Part shown: piece by piece, positions 12,501-56,267 of the stretch
How positions within the stretch are numbered: position 1 is the stretch's first letter
Layout: each line of letters begins with the position of its first letter
NCBI GenBank assembly: GCA_963664225.1
Contig: OY760937.1
Span: 128,001 to 192,000, forward strand
DNA: 64,000 nt
Direction: 5' to 3'
Source: Verrucomicrobiia bacterium
GTDB lineage: Bacteria > Verrucomicrobiota > Verrucomicrobiia > Limisphaerales > UBA1319
The notes under the pieces: generated by a model
Seen by the model: only the letters and a program-made list of their open reading frames with translations
What the model was told of the DNA's origin: nothing
Database searches by the model: none
Made by a program: the position numbers and the translations under genes

Positions 12501-12814
12501 TGGCGTTCGATCCGCGATTGACACCGGAAAACTTCAAGGCCCCGTTCACGGCGGCAGAGGGGTGGGGGAGCTTTACGCAAAAACGGGAATTGGCAGCGCA
12601 AACCAACGAGATTCAGATTCATCGTGGCACGCTGCGACTGAAGCGGTTAAAACTCACATTGGCCGACGGTTTCGCAAACGACCGGGTGGAAATAAAGCTT
12701 AACGGCACAAAAGTGGGCGTTCATCCGATGCGCACTGGGAATCAAGTGATTTTGCAGTTCGAGAAGGAATTGACCCTCAAAACAGGCCAGAAACTGGTGA
12801 TTCGCTTTGGATGA
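9560..12814 (+). CDS. GH116-family glycoside hydrolase, Tat-exported
   Basis: RREFLR twin-arginine signal; IGMPVGGLCAG, AFSPFIP..DSSLPA, FYGWEG..CTHVW, QYNTLD, NPWNEVECSDHYSRAM. Confidence 0.88.
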   Translation: MSTKEILPNDGATEGRAQDGKSSASDRALWGRREFLRTVGLGAAAAPFLMAGARAVAGPFEAGDFEKLVPSDKKLSAAWLRSLVERGEPTTYRGAATAKIGMPVGGLCAGQLYLGGDGQLWHWDVFNLPQTPDFGAGDGPHYARPLKPTSPLEQGFAIQVRHGQEEITRALNREGFPGVSFQGQYPIGRVGYADEAVPVRVALEAFSPFIPLNTEDSSLPATIMEFTLTNTGKETVDVALAGWLENAVCLGSGKPGRGRRRNRITHDTDLTLLQCSAEAATEKSGANARPDILFEDFEKETYAGWKVEGTAFGEGPIEVAKMPGYQGEVGAQGKRLVNSHNVRHGEDVGQGDAHTGTLTSREFVIERDYINFLIGGGAHKDRTCMNLWVDGRVVSSATGADSNRMHPASMDVRGFAGKTAHLEIVDREKGAWGNIGIDDIVFSDSPRKPATPLAQEPDYGTMALGLLDGGSKTYSTPDVQSGPEAVFAGLHGRNAADANREFGAKLMGALGREWRLKPGRTVKATFVVTWYFPTLRRGGLEHITDIAKLQRSYGKRFESAGAVARSVAQRYNTLAGQTRLWHRTWHDSSLPWWFLERTLLNISILATATCYEFDNGRFYGWEGTYCCAGTCTHVWQYAQAVGRLFPAYERSVREMVDYGLAFHPDTGAMDYRAEASRMVAVDGQAGTILRAYREHQMSADDTFLRRNWAKIKKSIEYLIRQDANEDGILDGDQYNTLDASWYGRIPWISSLYLAAVRAGVAMAEEMGDAGFAERCERIADKGREQLVTELFNGQYFIHKLDPKHPESTNTNEGCHIDQVYGQSWAFQAGLPRVLPETSTRAALESLWKYNFTPDTGVYRENFKDISGGRWYAMPGEGGLLMCTWPKGGGANAAGKGNPGFVAYFNECMTGFEYQVAAHMIWEGMTEKGLAITRMIHDRYHAARRNPWNEVECSDHYSRAMASYGVFLAACGYEYHGPKGFLAFDPRLTPENFKAPFTAAEGWGSFTQKRELAAQTNEIQIHRGTLRLKRLKLTLADGFANDRVEIKLNGTKVGVHPMRTGNQVILQFEKELTLKTGQKLVIRFG

Positions 12815-13001
12815 AAGAGAGCCGTATTTGGTCGAAATTGAGCAAATCGGCCCATTATAACGATATTGAGGGTCGGGTTGCGCCGCAAAAGACGGAATTT
12901 CGATCTGGAAAAAATAGAGGCTTGAATTCCGATTGGGGTTGCGTACCATCCGGCGTTCGATTTAAATTGCAAGATTAGAGAATCAGCGAGCAGAAAGTAC
13001 T

Positions 13002-13559
13002 ATGGCAACAGCAAACGATATTCGTAAAGGCATGGCGGTCGTCTATAATGGTGACATCGGCGTTGTCCTTGACTCACAGCACCGCACCCCAGGCAATCTG
13101 CGGGCATTTGTGCAGGCGACCATTCGCAGCATCAAGACGGGCAAAACCACCGACGTGCGCTTCAGTTCGACGGAGAAAATTGACGTGGTGCCCATGGCAT
13201 CGCGCAAAATGGAGTACAGCTACAAAGATGGAACGGATTTTGTCTTTTCTGACCCGGAAACGTATGAAACGGTGACCTTGAGCGCTGAATTGATCGGTGA
13301 CATCAAGAATTATCTCACTGAGAACGCGCTGGTGACAGTGACTTTCGTGGACGATAAGGCGGTGACGGTTGAGTTGCCGTCGTCGGTGACCTTGAAAGTG
13401 ACCGATGCTCCCGAGGGGATTCGCGGAGATTCCGCCAACAACGTCCAGAAACCGGTGGTCATGGAAACGGGCATCACCGTTCAAGTGCCATTGTTCATCA
13501 AGACGGGCGAGAAGCTCAAGATCGACACACGCACCGGCAAATACATGGAACGGGCCTGA
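13002..13559 (+). CDS. efp: Elongation factor P
   Basis: ANDIRKGM, FSDPETYE, KPVVMETG..VPLFIKTGE..IDTRTGKYMERA. Confidence 0.96.
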   Translation: MATANDIRKGMAVVYNGDIGVVLDSQHRTPGNLRAFVQATIRSIKTGKTTDVRFSSTEKIDVVPMASRKMEYSYKDGTDFVFSDPETYETVTLSAELIGDIKNYLTENALVTVTFVDDKAVTVELPSSVTLKVTDAPEGIRGDSANNVQKPVVMETGITVQVPLFIKTGEKLKIDTRTGKYMERA

Positions 13560-27768: not shown

Positions 27769-28575
27769 TTATCGCCCATTATCCGTTGCTGGATTGCACC
27801 AAAGCAAACCCTTCGTGGTCTTTAAGGATTCCTTGTCGAAGGTATCAAATTTGATAAACTCGACATGCCCGCCAAATCCGGCAATGACCGCTCCCTTGAC
27901 ATGTTTTTTGCCCACGCCTTCGCCTCTGTCTGGATAGCTGCTGGCGTCATTATACGCGAACTCTCCAATGGGCTGGTTGCCATTGTTCGGATTGAGTTTG
28001 TCTTCGTCAGGCTCCCACATCATATAAGCCGTCGGTTTGAACATGGTTTGCTTAAAGGTGTTGGGTTTTACCTTGGTTACTGCAGTGCTTTTGGTCCCAT
28101 ATCCGCAAACCGCCCCGTTCATGATGTATGTGGACATTTTATTTAGTCGTCTGAAAAAATATTTCCCATTGGTCTTGTCGAGTGGGCAGGTATAGACTTG
28201 GGTCTTCTTGATGAGATTCCACAAAGCACCACCGCTGTATGCCACTTGAGGATTCAAGCGGTTGGCTGCCGACCACATGTCCGGCGGGTTGCCGTTCCCT
28301 GTATAGAGCCAGCCGGCACCTTCAATCGGATCACTGCCCCAGTTGGGATAAGGCAACTGGTCGTTGTTGTCGTTGCAATACATCTGCATGGCCAGTGTGA
28401 ACTGTTTGTTGTTGTTCACGCAGTAGGTGCGGATGCTTTTTTCCTTGGCCTTGGACAGGGCGGGAAGGAGCATGCCGGCAAGAATCGCGATGATGGCGAT
28501 GACGACGAGCAGCTCGATGAGTGTGAACCCCTTGCGGAATCCTCCCTCTTGGATTGGGTATCCAGGTGCTTTCAT
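27769..28575 (-). CDS. Prepilin-type N-methylation domain protein (DUF1559/H-X9-DG-like family)
   Basis: [43 protein letters not shown]-terminal [15 protein letters not shown]. Confidence 0.9.
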
Positions 28576-28688
28576 AATTTTGAACATTGGTTGAACAGGT
28601 TTGCCGATTCTTGATCTTTTTCCACGGCGTGTCAACGACACGTTTTTAGAAAGCTCACGCACCGGCTGTAACCAACCATTACTGACAC

Positions 28689-28704
28689 TCAAGCCCCATG
28701 CCAA
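28689..28704 (-). promoter_or_regulatory. Possible sigma54-type promoter (imperfect -12)
   Basis: Minus strand reads TTGGCATGGGGCTTGA, close to the pilin promoter TTGGCACGGGGCTTGC. Confidence 0.4.
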
Positions 28705-51631: not shown

Positions 51632-52516
51632 GTGACCATACTCGAGACCATTCAGCGCGGCGCGCAATTCCTTCAAAATAAAGGAATTGATTCCCCCCGC
51701 CTGCAGGCCGAATTGCTCATGGCCCATGCCTTGGGCCTGCCCCGGCTCCGCCTGTATCTCGATTTTGAACGCCAACTCACCGGGGAGGAACTCGGCCGGG
51801 TGCGCGACCTGGTCACCCGCCGGGCCCGCCGCGAACCGCTCCAACACATCGTGGGCACGGTTTCCTTCTGCGGTCTGGAACTGGCCGTCTCCCCGGCCGT
51901 TCTTATCCCCAGACCCGAGACCGAGCTTCTCGCCGAGCATGCCTGGCAATACCTCAATCAGCGTTCCAGGGAAGGCACAGCGCCACTGACCGCCCTCGAT
52001 TTTGGAACCGGCAGCGGTTGTCTGGCCATAGCCATCGCGTCACATTGTCCCACAGTGGAAGTTCTTGCACTGGACCTGTCGGCGCCCGCTCTCGAGGTGG
52101 CGCGAGCCAATGCCGCCCGGCACGGAAAGCACGCCGTTCGTTTTATTCTGGGGAATGGCTTTGCAGCCCTGCCAAGGTCGGATCCGGCGGGAGTCGAGGA
52201 AAGCCGGTTCGACCTCATTGTCTCCAATCCCCCCTATATTCCAGCGGCGGAAATCGAGCGCCTGGAACCCGAGGTGCGGGACTTCGATCCCCGTGGCGCT
52301 CTGGATGGCGGCGTGGATGGTCTGGATTTCATGCGGCGGCTGGCCGGTGAAGCCGGGACGCACCTGAGAAATCCGGGGCGCTTGATGGTCGAATTCGGGG
52401 ACGGCCAGGAAACGGCCGTGCGCGGGATATTTGAGCAATCAGGCTGGCGAATCGAAGCCGTGGTCAAAGACCTGAACGGCACCCCCCGGTTCGTGGTCTG
52501 TGACCGCGCAAAGTAA
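51632..52516 (+). CDS. prmC: Release factor glutamine methyltransferase
   Basis: RR..REPLQHI, VLIPRPETE, DFGTGSGC, VSNPPYI, ALDGG.DGL. Confidence 0.95.
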   Translation: MTILETIQRGAQFLQNKGIDSPRLQAELLMAHALGLPRLRLYLDFERQLTGEELGRVRDLVTRRARREPLQHIVGTVSFCGLELAVSPAVLIPRPETELLAEHAWQYLNQRSREGTAPLTALDFGTGSGCLAIAIASHCPTVEVLALDLSAPALEVARANAARHGKHAVRFILGNGFAALPRSDPAGVEESRFDLIVSNPPYIPAAEIERLEPEVRDFDPRGALDGGVDGLDFMRRLAGEAGTHLRNPGRLMVEFGDGQETAVRGIFEQSGWRIEAVVKDLNGTPRFVVCDRAK

Positions 52517-52544
52517 GCCGACGCATCCCTTTGCCCTTTGCCCT

Positions 52545-52731
52545 CATTGTCCATTTTCCATTGTCAATTAACCATTACCTTTTCCCCTCCGTGTCATCCG
52601 TCATATCCGTGGTTAAAAATCCTGTCCATCCTGACTATCCATGTTAATTCTTTCCCCCTTCCCATCCCTGTCTTTTCCGCCGCCCTCCCGCCCTCTGCTC
52701 TCGGCTCTCGGCTCTCGGCTCTCGGCTCTCC
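52545..52731 (-). repeat. Reverse copy of the modular repeat plus (GCTCTCG)x4 heptamer tract
   Basis: CATTGTCCATTTTCCATTGTCAATT, TCCGTGTCATCCGTCATATCCGTGGTTAAAAATCCTG; heptamers at 52697-52731. Confidence 0.8.
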
Positions 52732-52779
52732 GCCCTTTTACAGGTTGCATTACACGCCCAAACCGGCCTATTTTCCCGC

Positions 52780-53190
52780 ATGCGACAAATGCGCCAATTC
52801 CTTGGCATTGTCTTGATTTGCATCGCGTTCCTCGCCGGTCGCGCCTGTTACCGGCATTTCACGCATTTCATGGGCGAACAGCTTCCGCCCGCTCAAAGCC
52901 AGACGACCAACAACGCCACGCCCAATCTGCCAGGCATGCCTGAGTCCCTGGAGTCCTCCCTGGCGGCCGCGCAAGCCCGGGGACCCAAAACATTCCGGCG
53001 CTGGATCGATTATTACGGCCCGAACATCGCCGATCCCCGTCTGGCCTCCATCGAACTCGATTACGTGGTCATGGTCAGCCGCGAGGACATGGCCGAGGCG
53101 CGCCGCGTCTTTGCCGCCGTCAAAGCCAGAACCCCCGCCAATTCCCCCGTCCATCCCCGGATCGCACGCCTTCAGGAGGCGTATGAATAG
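52780..53190 (+). CDS. Hypothetical protein with N-terminal membrane anchor
   Basis: Hydrophobic N-terminus; genome-like codon usage. Confidence 0.65.
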   Translation: MRQMRQFLGIVLICIAFLAGRACYRHFTHFMGEQLPPAQSQTTNNATPNLPGMPESLESSLAAAQARGPKTFRRWIDYYGPNIADPRLASIELDYVVMVSREDMAEARRVFAAVKARTPANSPVHPRIARLQEAYE

Positions 53191-53392
53191 CAATTCCCTG
53201 ATCCTGTTCATCCTATCTATCCATGTTAAGAATCCCATTGCCGCATCCTGTTGGAATAACCGTGTCTTCCGGCTCTTCCGCGTGTCCTAATACGAGACAT
53301 TCAAACCGCGCTTCATGACATTCCCTTTACAGAAAGGCCTGAATACGCGGTATTTTCATCGTGATTATGGGGAGTTTACTGGGAGTTGACAT

Positions 53393-53407
53393 TGGCACGG
53401 GGCTTGC
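53393..53407 (+). promoter_or_regulatory. Sigma54 (-24/-12) promoter of pilin copy 1
   Basis: TGGCAC-GGGGC-TTGC, consensus spacing. Confidence 0.85.
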
Positions 53408-53421
53408 TAACGTTACCCCAA

Positions 53422-53493
53422 GCGGTTGGTATGAGGCGATCTGTGGACCGAACATGTTATCATATAAAATACCTCATACCGGGTTCACGCCGC
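53422..53493 (+). ncRNA. Candidate structured 5' leader RNA, copy 1
   Basis: GGTATGAGG/CCTCATACC stem; GTGGACC/GGTTCAC crossing pairing; GCGG/CCGC; conserved in copy 2. Confidence 0.55.
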
Positions 53494-53524
53494 GTTAAGT
53501 AAAACAACAAAAAAAGTAAAACGT

Positions 53525-53887
53525 ATGCGTACGCAAACCTCGCGGAAATCCGCCTTCACCCTGGTTGAAATCATGATCGTCGTGGCCATCATCGGCTTGC
53601 TGGCCGCGATCGCCATTCCTAACTTCGTCAAGGCCCGCCAGACCGCTCAGAAAAATGCTTGCATCGCGAATTTGAAGCAGATTGACGGTGCCATTGAACA
53701 ATATGCGTTGGAAAATAAGATAGCCACAGGAACGGCGGTTGCCATGACCGCCATTACCGGTGCGACAAACTACATCAAAGTTGCACCCAGTTGCCCTGCC
53801 ACAGGAACGGCTTATACCGGGGCTAACGTTGGTACACAACCTGTTTGCCCTTCCGCTGCGACGTATCCTGATCACAAGCTTCCGTAA
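53525..53887 (+). CDS. Type IV pilin, copy 1
   Basis: SAFTLVEIMIVVAIIGLLAAIAIPNF; CIANLKQI; C-terminal CP..CP. Confidence 0.92.
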   Translation: MRTQTSRKSAFTLVEIMIVVAIIGLLAAIAIPNFVKARQTAQKNACIANLKQIDGAIEQYALENKIATGTAVAMTAITGATNYIKVAPSCPATGTAYTGANVGTQPVCPSAATYPDHKLP

Positions 53888-53936
53888 TGCGGAAAGTGGC
53901 AACATAAGATTTGTTGCTCAGGCATTTTATTAAGCG

Positions 53937-53973
53937 AAAGGCTTGGAGGACGAAAATCCTCCAAGCCTTTTTT
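53937..53973 (+). terminator. Rho-independent terminator
   Basis: AAAGGCTTGGAGGA / TCCTCCAAGCCTTT plus T-run. Confidence 0.88.
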
Positions 53974-54174
53974 ATTTTTGAAGCCAGGTGTTGAATTGCA
54001 GTCCATTGTGGGTTAAATGAGCGGAATAGTTGGCAACGCGCTTCATGCGTTTATTGTCTCGATCCAAGGCATGTAAATTTAATAATGGACGTGTTCATTC
54101 CGCTGCAGTGTTTCCTGCTTTCATTTCAGGTTTAAACTCATACTTTTGTATTCAGTTCGCCTCCTGTTTGATAT

Positions 54175-54189
54175 TGGCACGAGACTTGC
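54175..54189 (+). promoter_or_regulatory. Sigma54 (-24/-12) promoter of pilin copy 2
   Basis: TGGCAC-GAGAC-TTGC. Confidence 0.85.
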
Positions 54190-54204
54190 TTTCGTTATTC
54201 TCGT

Positions 54205-54276
54205 GCGGTCGGTGTGAGGTTATCAGTGGACCGAACATGTTATCATATAAAACACCTCATACCGGGTTCACGCCGC
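54205..54276 (+). ncRNA. Candidate structured 5' leader RNA, copy 2
   Basis: GGTGTGAGG/CCTCATACC stem (G.U replaces A-U); GTGGACC/GGTTCAC; GCGG/CCGC. Confidence 0.55.
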
Positions 54277-54306
54277 GTTAAAAAGCACAACAAAAAAGTT
54301 AAACGT

Positions 54307-54669
54307 ATGCGTACTCAAACCTCGCGGAAATCCGCCTTCACCCTGGTTGAAATCATGATCGTCGTGGCCATCATCGGCTTGCTCGCCGCGATCGCCATCC
54401 CCAACTTCGTCAAGGCCCGCCAAACCGCTCAGAAAAATGCTTGCATCGCGAATTTGAAGCAAATTGACGGAGCCATTGAACAATATGCGTTGGAAAATAA
54501 GATAGCCAGCGGCACGGCGGTTGCCATGACGGCCATTACCGGTGCGACAAACTATATCAAAGTTGCACCCAGCTGCCCTGCCACTGGTGTGGATTATACC
54601 GGTGCTAGCGTCGGTACACAGCCTGTGTGCCCTTCTGCTGCGACTTATCCTGATCACAAGCTGCCTTAA
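54307..54669 (+). CDS. Type IV pilin, copy 2
   Basis: Same length as copy 1; four amino-acid differences visible. Confidence 0.92.
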   Translation: MRTQTSRKSAFTLVEIMIVVAIIGLLAAIAIPNFVKARQTAQKNACIANLKQIDGAIEQYALENKIASGTAVAMTAITGATNYIKVAPSCPATGVDYTGASVGTQPVCPSAATYPDHKLP

Positions 54670-54722
54670 GGTCGGCAGTGACAACATAAGTTTGATTGCT
54701 TTGATTTGTCTTTTAATGAATC

Positions 54723-54754
54723 GCTTGGAGGGGGGAACTCCTCCAGGCTTTTTT
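54723..54754 (+). terminator. Rho-independent terminator
   Basis: GCTTGGAGG / CTCCAGGC plus T-run. Confidence 0.75.
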
Positions 54755-54815
54755 ATGTTGGACTATCAGTTCTCAAATTTGAGTGGGTATTTTCTAACAA
54801 TGAACATCTCTAAAC

Positions 54816-55169
54816 ATGCATATCCGGCATCGGCAAAGGCGCCAGGCATTTACATTAGTGGAGATAATGGTGGTGATTGCGATCATTGGGCTGATAATGG
54901 CCATCGTAATTCCCAATTTCATCAAGACCCGGCAAATGGCTCAAGCACGAGTGTGCCTTGAAAATATCACACAAATAGAATCCGCAAAAACGCAATGGGG
55001 TTTGGACGCACTAAAAGGAAACGCCGATACTCCCACTGTTGCGAATCTGTTTGGATCGACAGGATATATTCGGGTTGAACCCAAATGCCCAGCCAACAAT
55101 GGAAGTTACGATCTGAAAACTTTGGGTGAAAGAGCAGTCTGTGCCATTCATGGGGATGGATTGCACTAA
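54816..55169 (+). CDS. Type IV pilin-like protein (divergent third copy)
   Basis: QAFTLVEIMVVIAIIGLIMAIVIPNF; C..N..QI..AK.QW; CP..C..HG. Confidence 0.88.
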   Translation: MHIRHRQRRQAFTLVEIMVVIAIIGLIMAIVIPNFIKTRQMAQARVCLENITQIESAKTQWGLDALKGNADTPTVANLFGSTGYIRVEPKCPANNGSYDLKTLGERAVCAIHGDGLH

Positions 55170-55301
55170 GTCGCTATCGAGAAACCCGAGCACAAAAGTA
55201 ACCCATTAAAATCTCCTTCACAGCGCCAAATCCGAGTCAATCGGTTTTGGCGCTTTTTTTGCCGGGTTGCGGGAAACGGGGCGCATGCTAGAATTGTGGC
55301 G

Positions 55302-56267
55302 ATGATTTCCGAAACGGAAAATGTGGTTGGTTCGAAGGCGCCAGGGCAGGGGATGAATCCTCGTCCGCGGCTGCCCGCATGGTTGCGCATGCCGCTGCCC
55401 ACGACCGACACCTACAGTCACACCCGCGCCATGCTCGGCGAACTGCACCTGCACACCGTCTGCGAAAGCGCGAAGTGCCCGAACCACTGGGAATGCTGGA
55501 GCCGTGGCACCGCCACATTCATGATCGGCGGGGACCGCTGCACGCGCGCCTGCGGTTTTTGCGCCATAGCAACGGCCAGGCCCCTGCCGCTCGATCCCGA
55601 CGAACCCGCCCGCGTGGCCGAGGCCGCCCGTCGCATGGGCTTGCGCCATGTGGTGATTACCGCGGTGGCGCGGGACGACATGCCGGATGGCGGCGCCGAT
55701 CATTTCCGGCGGACCATTCTCGCGGTCAAAGCCGCCGTTCCGAACCTGGTGGTGGAGGTATTGACGCCCGATTTCAACGACCGTGACGCGGCCATCGAAT
55801 GCGTGCTCGAAGCGCGGCCCGAGGTGTTCAATCACAACCTGGAAACCGTGCGGCGCTTGACGCCCTCGGTCCGTTCCCGGGCCACCTATGATCGTTCGTT
55901 GAGTGTCCTGCGAAAGGTCCGGGCCAAAGTGGGGCACAACCTTTACACCAAATCCGGCCTGATGCTCGGATTGGGCGAGACCCGGGAGGAAGTGCTGACC
56001 GCCATGGCCGACCTGCGAGAGGTCGATTGCGACATTTTGACGCTCGGCCAGTATTTGCAGCCCACGCGAGAGCATCTGCCCGTTCAGGACTTTATCGCTC
56101 CCGAACAATTTCTCGATTATGCGCGCCTGGCCCGTCAAATGGGGTTCGTGCATGCGGCCTGCGGACCTCTGGTGCGCAGCTCCTATCACGCGGAGGATTT
56201 TTCCCAAAACCAAACGCAACAGGCGGCGGAATCAGCGGGGCGGGATGCCGGCATTGCGGCGCATTAA
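55302..56267 (+). CDS. lipA: Lipoyl synthase
   Basis: TVCESAKCPNHWECW, CTRACGFC, FNHNLETV, TKSGLMLGLGE, PLVRSSYHA. Confidence 0.96.
   Translation: MISETENVVGSKAPGQGMNPRPRLPAWLRMPLPTTDTYSHTRAMLGELHLHTVCESAKCPNHWECWSRGTATFMIGGDRCTRACGFCAIATARPLPLDPDEPARVAEAARRMGLRHVVITAVARDDMPDGGADHFRRTILAVKAAVPNLVVEVLTPDFNDRDAAIECVLEARPEVFNHNLETVRRLTPSVRSRATYDRSLSVLRKVRAKVGHNLYTKSGLMLGLGETREEVLTAMADLREVDCDILTLGQYLQPTREHLPVQDFIAPEQFLDYARLARQMGFVHAACGPLVRSSYHAEDFSQNQTQQAAESAGRDAGIAAH

Follow-up and report, generated by a model that had tools for sequence, protein, structure and literature searches.

The window, the whole 64,000-nucleotide (nt) stretch of Verrucomicrobiia DNA analysed here (contig OY760937.1, positions 128,001 to 192,000), contains two closely similar genes for short type IV pilin-like proteins, each preceded by a 72-nt leader. 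A first-pass annotation of the window proposed that this leader is an undescribed cis-acting RNA with a pseudoknot, and the proposal is supported by homologous leaders with compensatory base changes in other genomes. The existence of the RNA structure is virtually certain. The results support a new family of structured cis-acting leader RNA, in general type a kind already known, with an unusual placement at or within a few nt of the predicted transcript start. In the genomes sampled the family is confined to one order of Verrucomicrobiota and is tied to one gene family.

Structure and covariation of the leader RNA

The structure was analysed in an alignment (A5) of 89 copies from 70 genomes. 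The family fold consists of a helix of 4 base pairs (bp), designated P1 (GCGG/CCGC), a 10-bp hairpin of free sequence, designated P2, and a pseudoknot of 6-8 bp in which the P2 loop (GUGAAC) pairs with the strand located just 5' of the 3' half of P1 (GUUCAC-G-CCGC). As the alignment was made to fit P1 and P2, it favours these two helices; since the pseudoknot was absent from the alignment model, it constitutes an independent test. The fraction of alignment cells that were paired was 99.7% for P1, 95.9% for P2 with two-sided changes in all 10 pairs, and 89.0% for the pseudoknot, the core of which was paired in approximately 100%. For all three helices together 94.1% of cells were paired, whereas only 33-44% were paired when the partners were slid by 1-3 columns. 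Two-sided changes were found in 18 of the 22 pairs (245 cells), and none of 500 shuffles reached any of these measures. Thus, compensatory changes across diverged homologues exceed the controls, as expected of a conserved structured RNA.

Three pairs of the pseudoknot are invariant and two show AU/GU/GC exchanges, for example GUGAGC/GCUCAC and GUGGAC/GUCCAC. Pair 37:124 was AU in 74 copies, GU in 9 and GC in 6, and pair 38:123 was AU in 84, GU in 3 and GC in 2. A seventh pair (40:121), of the AU, GC and CG types, was formed in 57 of the 89 copies. The bases of the hairpin loop therefore pair, with covariation, to a strand located 3' of the hairpin, an arrangement that defines an H-type pseudoknot. 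A mutual-information scan of the alignment that was blind to the structure placed all of its top nine column pairs within the three helices and revealed no further helix, and none involving the linker between P1 and the start codon. Since G.U cells outnumber A.C cells 94 to 24, the structure is that of RNA of the mRNA strand.

Positions outside the helices that are conserved in at least 90% of copies include individual G and U residues of the long loop, itself A-rich and conserved, and the AAU that follows P2; the GGC/GC top of P2 is conserved to the same degree. Two alternative pairings were examined and rejected. A mini-hairpin within the long loop (columns 38-41 with 51-54) was paired in 61.1% versus 61.7% in shuffled alignments and is without support. 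Pairing of the purine tract of the linker with the 3' strand of P2, considered by eye, was dropped because the sequence of P2 varies freely.

The two copies in the window

Leader copy 1 is located at 53422-53493 (+) and copy 2 at 54205-54276 (+), with scores of 90.7 and 89.8 bits, respectively, against a covariance model (R1) built from 7 copies with P1 and P2 only. Each copy is preceded by an exact sigma54-type consensus, TGGCAC-N5-TTGC, at 53393-53407 (+) for copy 1 and at 54175-54189 (+) for copy 2, with the -12 GC ending 14 and 15 nt before P1, respectively. P1 of copy 1 is formed by GCGG at 53422-25 with CCGC at 53490-93, and P1 of copy 2 by 54205-08 with 54273-76. P2, the main stem, pairs GGTATGAGG at 53428-36 with CCTCATACC at 53472-80 in copy 1, and GGTGTGAGG(T) at 54211-20 with (A)CCTCATACC at 54254-63 in copy 2. 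The pseudoknot of copy 1 is formed by the loop GTGGACC at 53443-49 with GGTTCAC at 53482-88, and that of copy 2 by 54226-32 with 54265-71. The conserved unpaired bases of copy 1 are (G)AT, which follows P2, and, within the long loop, ATCATATAA. Both promoters, P1, the main stem and the pseudoknot were accordingly all present where the first-pass annotation had placed them. Its description of an A-U to G.U change in the stem between the two copies was also correct. The U.G to C-G change that it described at the base of the stem exists as stated, but the pair involved is not conserved in the family.

The two copies were further compared region by region. The 190 nt upstream were identical in 119 of 230 aligned columns (52%), the promoter in 13/15, the spacer between promoter and P1 in 8/15 (53%), the motif in 66/72 (92%), the linker in 27/33, the coding sequence in 336/363 (93%; 4 amino-acid differences) and the 3' untranslated region in 69/98 (70%). 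The motif is thus better conserved than the DNA upstream of the promoters (92% versus 52%), as had been proposed, with the coding sequence equally high. Since the motif is no better conserved than the coding sequence, the two window copies alone cannot exclude a recent duplication. The folding energies of the two copies, computed for nested structure only, were unremarkable (z = +0.48, -0.84, -1.10 and -1.56) and are uninformative alone. The case for more-than-chance structure is therefore made by the other genomes and not by the two window copies. A leader peptide was also considered and rejected: open reading frames (ORFs) at 53361-53498 and 54030-54281 cross the block, but the block contains insertions and deletions in loop length between species, and transcription is predicted to start at P1.

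Distribution across genomes

The genomes searched are samples of their groups, in which relatives are not independent, and the E-values are rough owing to a shortened calibration. Searches of the window's own genome revealed only the two leader copies. A plain DNA search of 60 relatives returned weak leader matches in only two other genomes; a covariance model was needed. In those two relatives the sequence of P2 is entirely different and yet still pairs. Model R1 matched 109 of 151 genomes of the same order with 185 matches, often 2-7 per genome; among the genomes of good quality 81 of 110 were matched, and of 108 genera 82 were represented. Elsewhere in the phylum, R1 had no match in a sample of 150 genomes. 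With a second model (R2), for which 89 copies were used, matches were obtained in 13 of 19 genomes of the order, whereas 131 genomes from other orders of the class gave none. Hence the refuting outcome foreseen by the first-pass annotation, in which homologous leaders or covariation would be lacking elsewhere, did not occur, and in the genomes sampled the RNA family is confined to one order of Verrucomicrobiota.

The public records that contain the motif are mostly titled Verrucomicrobia subdivision 3, Pedosphaera or Verrucomicrobiia. A scan of species-representative genomes with an exact pattern returned 58 stretches, of which 32 scored at least 39 bits with R1. The titles of 27 of these 32 real copies were Verrucomicrobi*, Pedosphaera or Candidatus Angelobacter; the remaining five carried non-verrucomicrobial labels of metagenome-assembled genomes, which could not be verified. 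The other 26 stretches were chance matches in unrelated phyla, 25 of them without an R1 match and one with a weak match (21.4 bits) that was without a pilin gene.

Same-order genomes without a match are not all true absences. In one of them (G090, L142:1384-1465) a divergent variant of the leader, scoring 22.1 bits with R2, precedes a 59%-identical pilin with P1 and P2 kept. In this variant GUUGGUUG replaces the GUUCAC strand and is complementary to CAACCAAC in the downstream linker, which may represent a rearranged architecture. In another (G087, contig G087:C10, locus L141), which is without the motif, a 56%-identical pilin gene at 12705-13034 (-) has an unrelated leader. By eye, this leader contains a GC-rich hairpin (CCGGCG...CGCCGG) just after a sigma70-like promoter, possibly a functional substitute for the knot.

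Association with pilin-like genes

The downstream gene was identified for copies from three sources. In alignment A5, a pilin-like ORF whose N-terminus reads ...GFTLVEIMIVVAIIGLLAAIAIPNF lies downstream of 86 of the 89 copies; the remaining three are cut by the end of the locus. Among 20 further copies at second loci, 17 lie directly before a pilin-like ORF, one is cut and two have a short ORF first. A pilin ORF lies downstream of every one of the 32 copies obtained in the pattern scan. In total, 135 of 141 copies stand directly before a pilin-like ORF, four are cut, and in two a short ORF intervenes between the motif and a pilin gene. The motif is thus associated with a single gene family. 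Within that family the leader is restricted to a subfamily of short pilins of 105-141 amino acids. A larger prepilin-type protein encoded in the window at 27769-28704 (-), of 311 amino acids (N_methyl plus DUF1559/SBP_bac_10), is without a leader.

Three genomes deviate from this layout. In G157 (L171) and G022 (L172:263-1133) the motif, the purine tract and the ATG are kept, but the frame that opens is a 107-amino-acid ORF of no family. One copy in G001 (L003:2096-2700) has the same layout with a short ORF of 38 amino acids. In all three the short ORF is followed by a pilin-like gene of the subtype to which the third pilin-like gene of the window belongs; the latter (54816-55169) is without a leader.

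Clustering of the genes neighbouring 76 loci revealed no conserved regulator gene beside the leader loci, and only sugar-nucleotide enzymes were recurrent. An NAD-dependent epimerase/dehydratase (PF01370) was a neighbour in 16 of the 76 loci, for example L018:311-1297 (-), and a GDP-mannose 4,6-dehydratase (PF16363) in five, for example L017:2747-3085 (-). The window contains no sugar-nucleotide gene of these families. These neighbours may hint at pilin glycosylation or may reflect conserved synteny only.

Promoter and start-codon geometry

The position of the RNA relative to the promoter was determined with the sigma54-type pattern [TC]GG[CTA][AG][CT]-N5-NTGC. This element was found upstream of 71 of the 89 copies, 11-25 nt before P1, while the pattern occurs elsewhere in these loci at 0.20 per kb. 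The gap from the promoter GC to P1 was 13 nt in 33 copies, 14 nt in 11 and 12 nt in 9, so that 53 of the 71 copies have a gap of 12-14 nt; the remaining gaps were 11 nt (one copy), 15 nt (four), 16 nt (five), 18 nt (four), 19 nt (three) and 25 nt (one). The genome encodes rpoN (425.9 bits versus a cut-off of 277.35), which together with the GG-N10-GC core and the TGGCAC-N5-TTGC consensus in the window is consistent with sigma54-dependent promoters. The first-pass annotation had described the leader as sigma54-driven, which is typical of the family but not obligatory. Eighteen copies are without the element, one of which has only 8 nt of upstream sequence. In 9 of the 17 others a sigma70-type element (TTGNNN-N15-18-NANNNT) ends 5-9 nt before P1, the distance being 7 nt in six. 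With the textbook spacings from -12 to +1 and from -10 to +1, both promoter types place the predicted +1 at 0-3 nt before P1, such that P1 would start at predicted positions +1 to +4. Selection thus seems to keep the start of the RNA at the extreme 5' end of the transcript, whichever sigma factor is used.

At the other side of the block, the end of P1 and the start codon are separated by a median of 23 nt, and in 55 of 85 copies the distance is 18-26 nt. Linker lengths in the 89 copies range from 4 to 47 nt. In view of this distance of approximately 23 nt and of the fixed distance to the promoter upstream, a transcript start downstream of the block is unlikely. The linkers of many relatives contain, by eye, a GAAAGG-like purine tract outside all helices. 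The first-pass annotation had noted no clear Shine-Dalgarno sequence, an observation that holds for this genome but not for these relatives; the A/CAA-rich linker of this kind is particular to this genome and a few others. No terminator hairpin was seen by eye in the linkers of the 89 copies.

Possible function of the leader

The reading favoured here, though only tentatively, is that the leader is a cis-acting element that sequesters the 5' end of the pilin mRNA and acts on its stability and translation. The proposal is based on the geometry deduced above, in which the predicted 5' end is closed off by the knot and an open ribosome-binding site lies directly beside it. The block would be transcribed as the 5' leader of each pilin mRNA, where the knot would form a compact, cap-like 5' domain acting in cis. 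Burial of the 5' end in the knot would hinder 5'-end-dependent decay by pyrophosphohydrolase and RNase E/G, and the adjacent purine-rich ribosome-binding site would be left single-stranded and accessible. As a result, the mRNA of an abundant filament subunit would be long-lived and well translated. A match to RNase E/G (345.9 bits) is present in the genome. RNase J was considered as the blocked nuclease and rejected, no match above the cut-off being found in the genome (32 bits versus 400). Pairing at the 5' terminus reportedly protects mRNAs of Escherichia coli, including that of papA, which encodes a major pilin, in studies attributed to Bouvet and Belasco in 1992, Emory et al. in 1992 and Bricker and Belasco in 1999. 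According to the review PMC3997798, RppH requires at least two unpaired 5' nucleotides.

Several observations weigh against protection of the 5' end. RNase Y, which acts independently of the 5' end, is also present in the genome, and P1 is only 4 bp long. With the modal gap of 13 nt, about two 5' nucleotides are predicted to be unpaired, which would be borderline for protection. The ribosome-binding site is only moderately open, with a median unpaired probability of 0.69 and a probability above 0.7 in 39 of 85 copies, as determined by unconstrained folding in which the pseudoknot is ignored. Furthermore, a plain hairpin suffices for 5' protection, which leaves the near-invariant unpaired bases and the pseudoknot unexplained, features more suggestive of a pocket for binding or of a surface recognised by a protein. 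They call for something beyond simple protection, such as a tertiary fold of high stability, a pocket for a ligand or a surface for a protein.

Alternatively, the knot could be an operator for a trans-acting factor. A lineage-specific factor, either an RNA-binding protein or a small RNA, would recognise it beside the ribosome-binding site and thereby link translation or decay of the pilin mRNA to the assembly of filaments, in the manner of CsrA-FliW for flagellin or of S15 on the rpsO pseudoknot. This is possible, if unlikely, and is in keeping with the single gene family and with the sequence conservation in loops and junctions. The fixed distance of approximately 23 nt to the start codon, which for a 30S footprint of the usual size places the knot at its 5' edge, also agrees with such an operator, and the restriction to one order would fit co-evolution with a lineage-specific partner. 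No partner was identified, however, the 76 clustered loci are not adjoined by a conserved regulator gene, and inspection of the leader alignment by eye revealed no conserved GGA motif of the CsrA type. Still less likely is a riboswitch, in which the pseudoknot junction would bind a small molecule, such as a cyclic dinucleotide or another signal of surface behaviour, and alter translation or decay of the pilin mRNA. Three-helix pseudoknots with near-invariant unpaired junction bases (here GGC-AAU and GUUCAC-G-CCGC) are typical of small aptamers, and PMC6366702 provides a precedent in Cdi-2-4, a class II cyclic di-GMP (c-di-GMP) riboswitch upstream of pilA1 in Clostridioides difficile. Because Rfam shows no known class here, the riboswitch would belong to a new one. 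Against it, riboswitches usually serve several gene families whereas the 141 copies serve only one, and no expression platform is apparent: no terminator was seen by eye in the linker, the purine tract lies outside all helices, the alternative helix was paired no more often than in shuffled alignments (61.1% versus 61.7%), and no extra covarying pairs were among the top nine. The tight coupling to the transcript start would also be unusual for an aptamer. Were a riboswitch nevertheless present, one verrucomicrobial order would adjust the synthesis of its major filament subunit in response to a small molecule such as a nucleotide second messenger. Closure of the mRNA 5' end would depend on the ligand and would in turn affect decay and translation, with neither a terminator nor masking of the ribosome-binding site involved; this is doubtful.

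Two further explanations have very little probability. Some ribozyme classes are small pseudoknotted RNAs in which unpaired bases are invariant, and the leader could in principle be a new self-cleaving ribozyme or another processing signal that makes a defined 5' end. This is highly improbable: none of the ribozyme families in Rfam matches, a link to a single gene family is rare among ribozymes, and the motif already stands at the predicted transcript start, where nothing upstream would be left to remove. The alternative that the block does not function as RNA, and reflects only a recent tandem duplication or gene conversion or else a protein-binding inverted repeat in the DNA downstream of the promoter, is hardly tenable. 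It would account for the similar identities of motif (92%) and coding sequence (93%) within the genome, and GTGAAC...GTTCAC is also an inverted repeat in DNA. The motif is, however, present in 109 of the 151 genomes of the order, and P2 differs completely in sequence between species with its pairing kept (95.9% of cells; all 10 pairs two-sided). In addition, the excess of G.U over A.C (94 to 24) is strand-specific, and the spacer between promoter and P1 is identical at only 8 of 15 positions between the window copies despite conserved blocks on both sides.

Comparison with known RNAs

A cmscan search of positions 52000-56000 against Rfam 15, on both strands with E up to 10, returned five weak matches, none of which overlapped 53393-53524 or 54175-54306. 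The best was to cyano_het_sRNA at 53908-53971 (+), with 24 bits versus a gathering score of 35.7 (E = 0.14); it lies on the terminator hairpin of the first pilin-like gene and is most likely a generic hairpin match. Thus, neither leader belongs to a family in Rfam 15. A strong match to an Rfam family, which the first-pass annotation had named as refuting, was therefore not obtained, and its impression that no c-di-GMP-I or c-di-GMP-II pattern is present agrees with the lack of a cmscan match to either family. Full-text literature searches found no published description of this leader motif. The main text of a paper reporting 224 motifs (PMC5737381) contains no occurrence of Verrucomicrobia, pilin, pili, pilus or sigma-54; the check covered the main text, and an unnamed listing in the supplementary motif lists is possible. 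The leader resembles the orphan leader motifs of the Weinberg and Breaker lists in being a covarying motif of 5' untranslated regions that is associated with one gene family in one lineage, and differs from them in its absence from Rfam 15.

The stabilisers in the ompA 5' untranslated region and in papA of E. coli share with the leader the pairing at or within a few nt of the 5' end, which is predicted here, and the location in an mRNA for an abundant envelope or filament protein. papA moreover encodes the major pilin of the P pilus, comparable to the window genes, and an RNase E/G-type enzyme is present in this genome. Those elements are simple hairpins of free sequence, in contrast to a three-helix pseudoknot with near-invariant unpaired bases that is found order-wide; there is no sequence relationship, and stabilisation by the leader is only putative.

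SAM-II, preQ1-II and guanidine-III are small riboswitches with an H-type pseudoknot of which the ribosome-binding site is usually a part. In these RNAs, as in the leader, a hairpin loop pairs with the 3' flank and conserved bases are located at the helix junction. The leader differs in that its purine tract, by eye, is downstream of all helices and in having P1 as an additional closing helix, through which the 5' end is joined to the 3' strand; no cmscan match to these families was obtained. Cdi-2-4 is likewise a pseudoknotted RNA before a major type IV pilin gene, the expression of which it controls according to PMC6366702. The leader has no match to c-di-GMP-I or c-di-GMP-II at E up to 10, and whereas Cdi-2-4 acts via a transcription terminator, none was seen by eye in the linkers here.

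Gene units of the window

Each of the two pilin-like genes forms its own unit, composed of a promoter, a spacer of 14-15 nt, the 72-nt block, a linker of 30-31 nt, the coding sequence and a terminator. The linker of copy 1 (53494-53524, +) is A-rich and CAA-rich up to the ATG, without a clear Shine-Dalgarno sequence, and that of copy 2 (54277-54306, +) is A-rich. The first gene (53525-53887, +) encodes 120 amino acids with a prepilin N-terminal methylation motif and is followed by an intrinsic terminator at 53936-53980 (+) consisting of a 15-bp stem (53936-53971) and a T tract. The second gene (54307-54669, +), also of 120 amino acids with four differences from the first, is followed by an intrinsic terminator at 54723-54757 (+) consisting of a hairpin (54723-54748) and a T tract. 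Each leader-pilin unit, comprising promoter, knot, pilin gene and terminator, is monocistronic. The third pilin-like gene (+), of 117 amino acids and a different subtype, provides a contrast and is not part of the motif.

The first pilin-like protein matched PF07963 with 29.4 bits versus a cut-off of 21.2, and both 120-amino-acid proteins exceeded the cut-offs of PF07963 and TIGR02532. The best sequence matches of the first protein in the PDB were to the N-terminal helices of geopilin, GspG and PilA. An N-terminal cleavage and methylation motif followed by a hydrophobic helix places the proteins in the type IV pilin/pseudopilin superfamily. GspG, ComGC, PilA and all other equivalog models scored below their cut-offs for these two genes; for this reason they are called pilin-like without a subtype.

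The pilin genes are flanked by prmC and an unassigned ORF on one side and by lipA on the other. No genes for pilus machinery or for a sigma54 activator were found near them. An ORF of 136 amino acids at 52780-53190 (+), directly upstream of the first pilin promoter, had no match in Pfam or NCBIfam.

Significance

Soil, peat and freshwater harbour abundant Verrucomicrobia of this order, in which gene regulation is, to our knowledge, almost unstudied. The analysis yields a well-supported new RNA family of approximately 185 copies in 109 genomes with three covarying helices, together with a seed alignment and a covariance model fit for curation in the manner of Rfam. The genetic context is clean, the units being monocistronic, and a function tied to the mRNA 5' end is suggested by the fixed place of the RNA at the predicted transcript start, which is the same with both types of promoter. 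If such a function is true, the leader would be an unusually elaborate bacterial structure for protection or regulation of the 5' end; if instead a ligand or a protein is bound, the leader would reveal how surface filaments are controlled in these bacteria.

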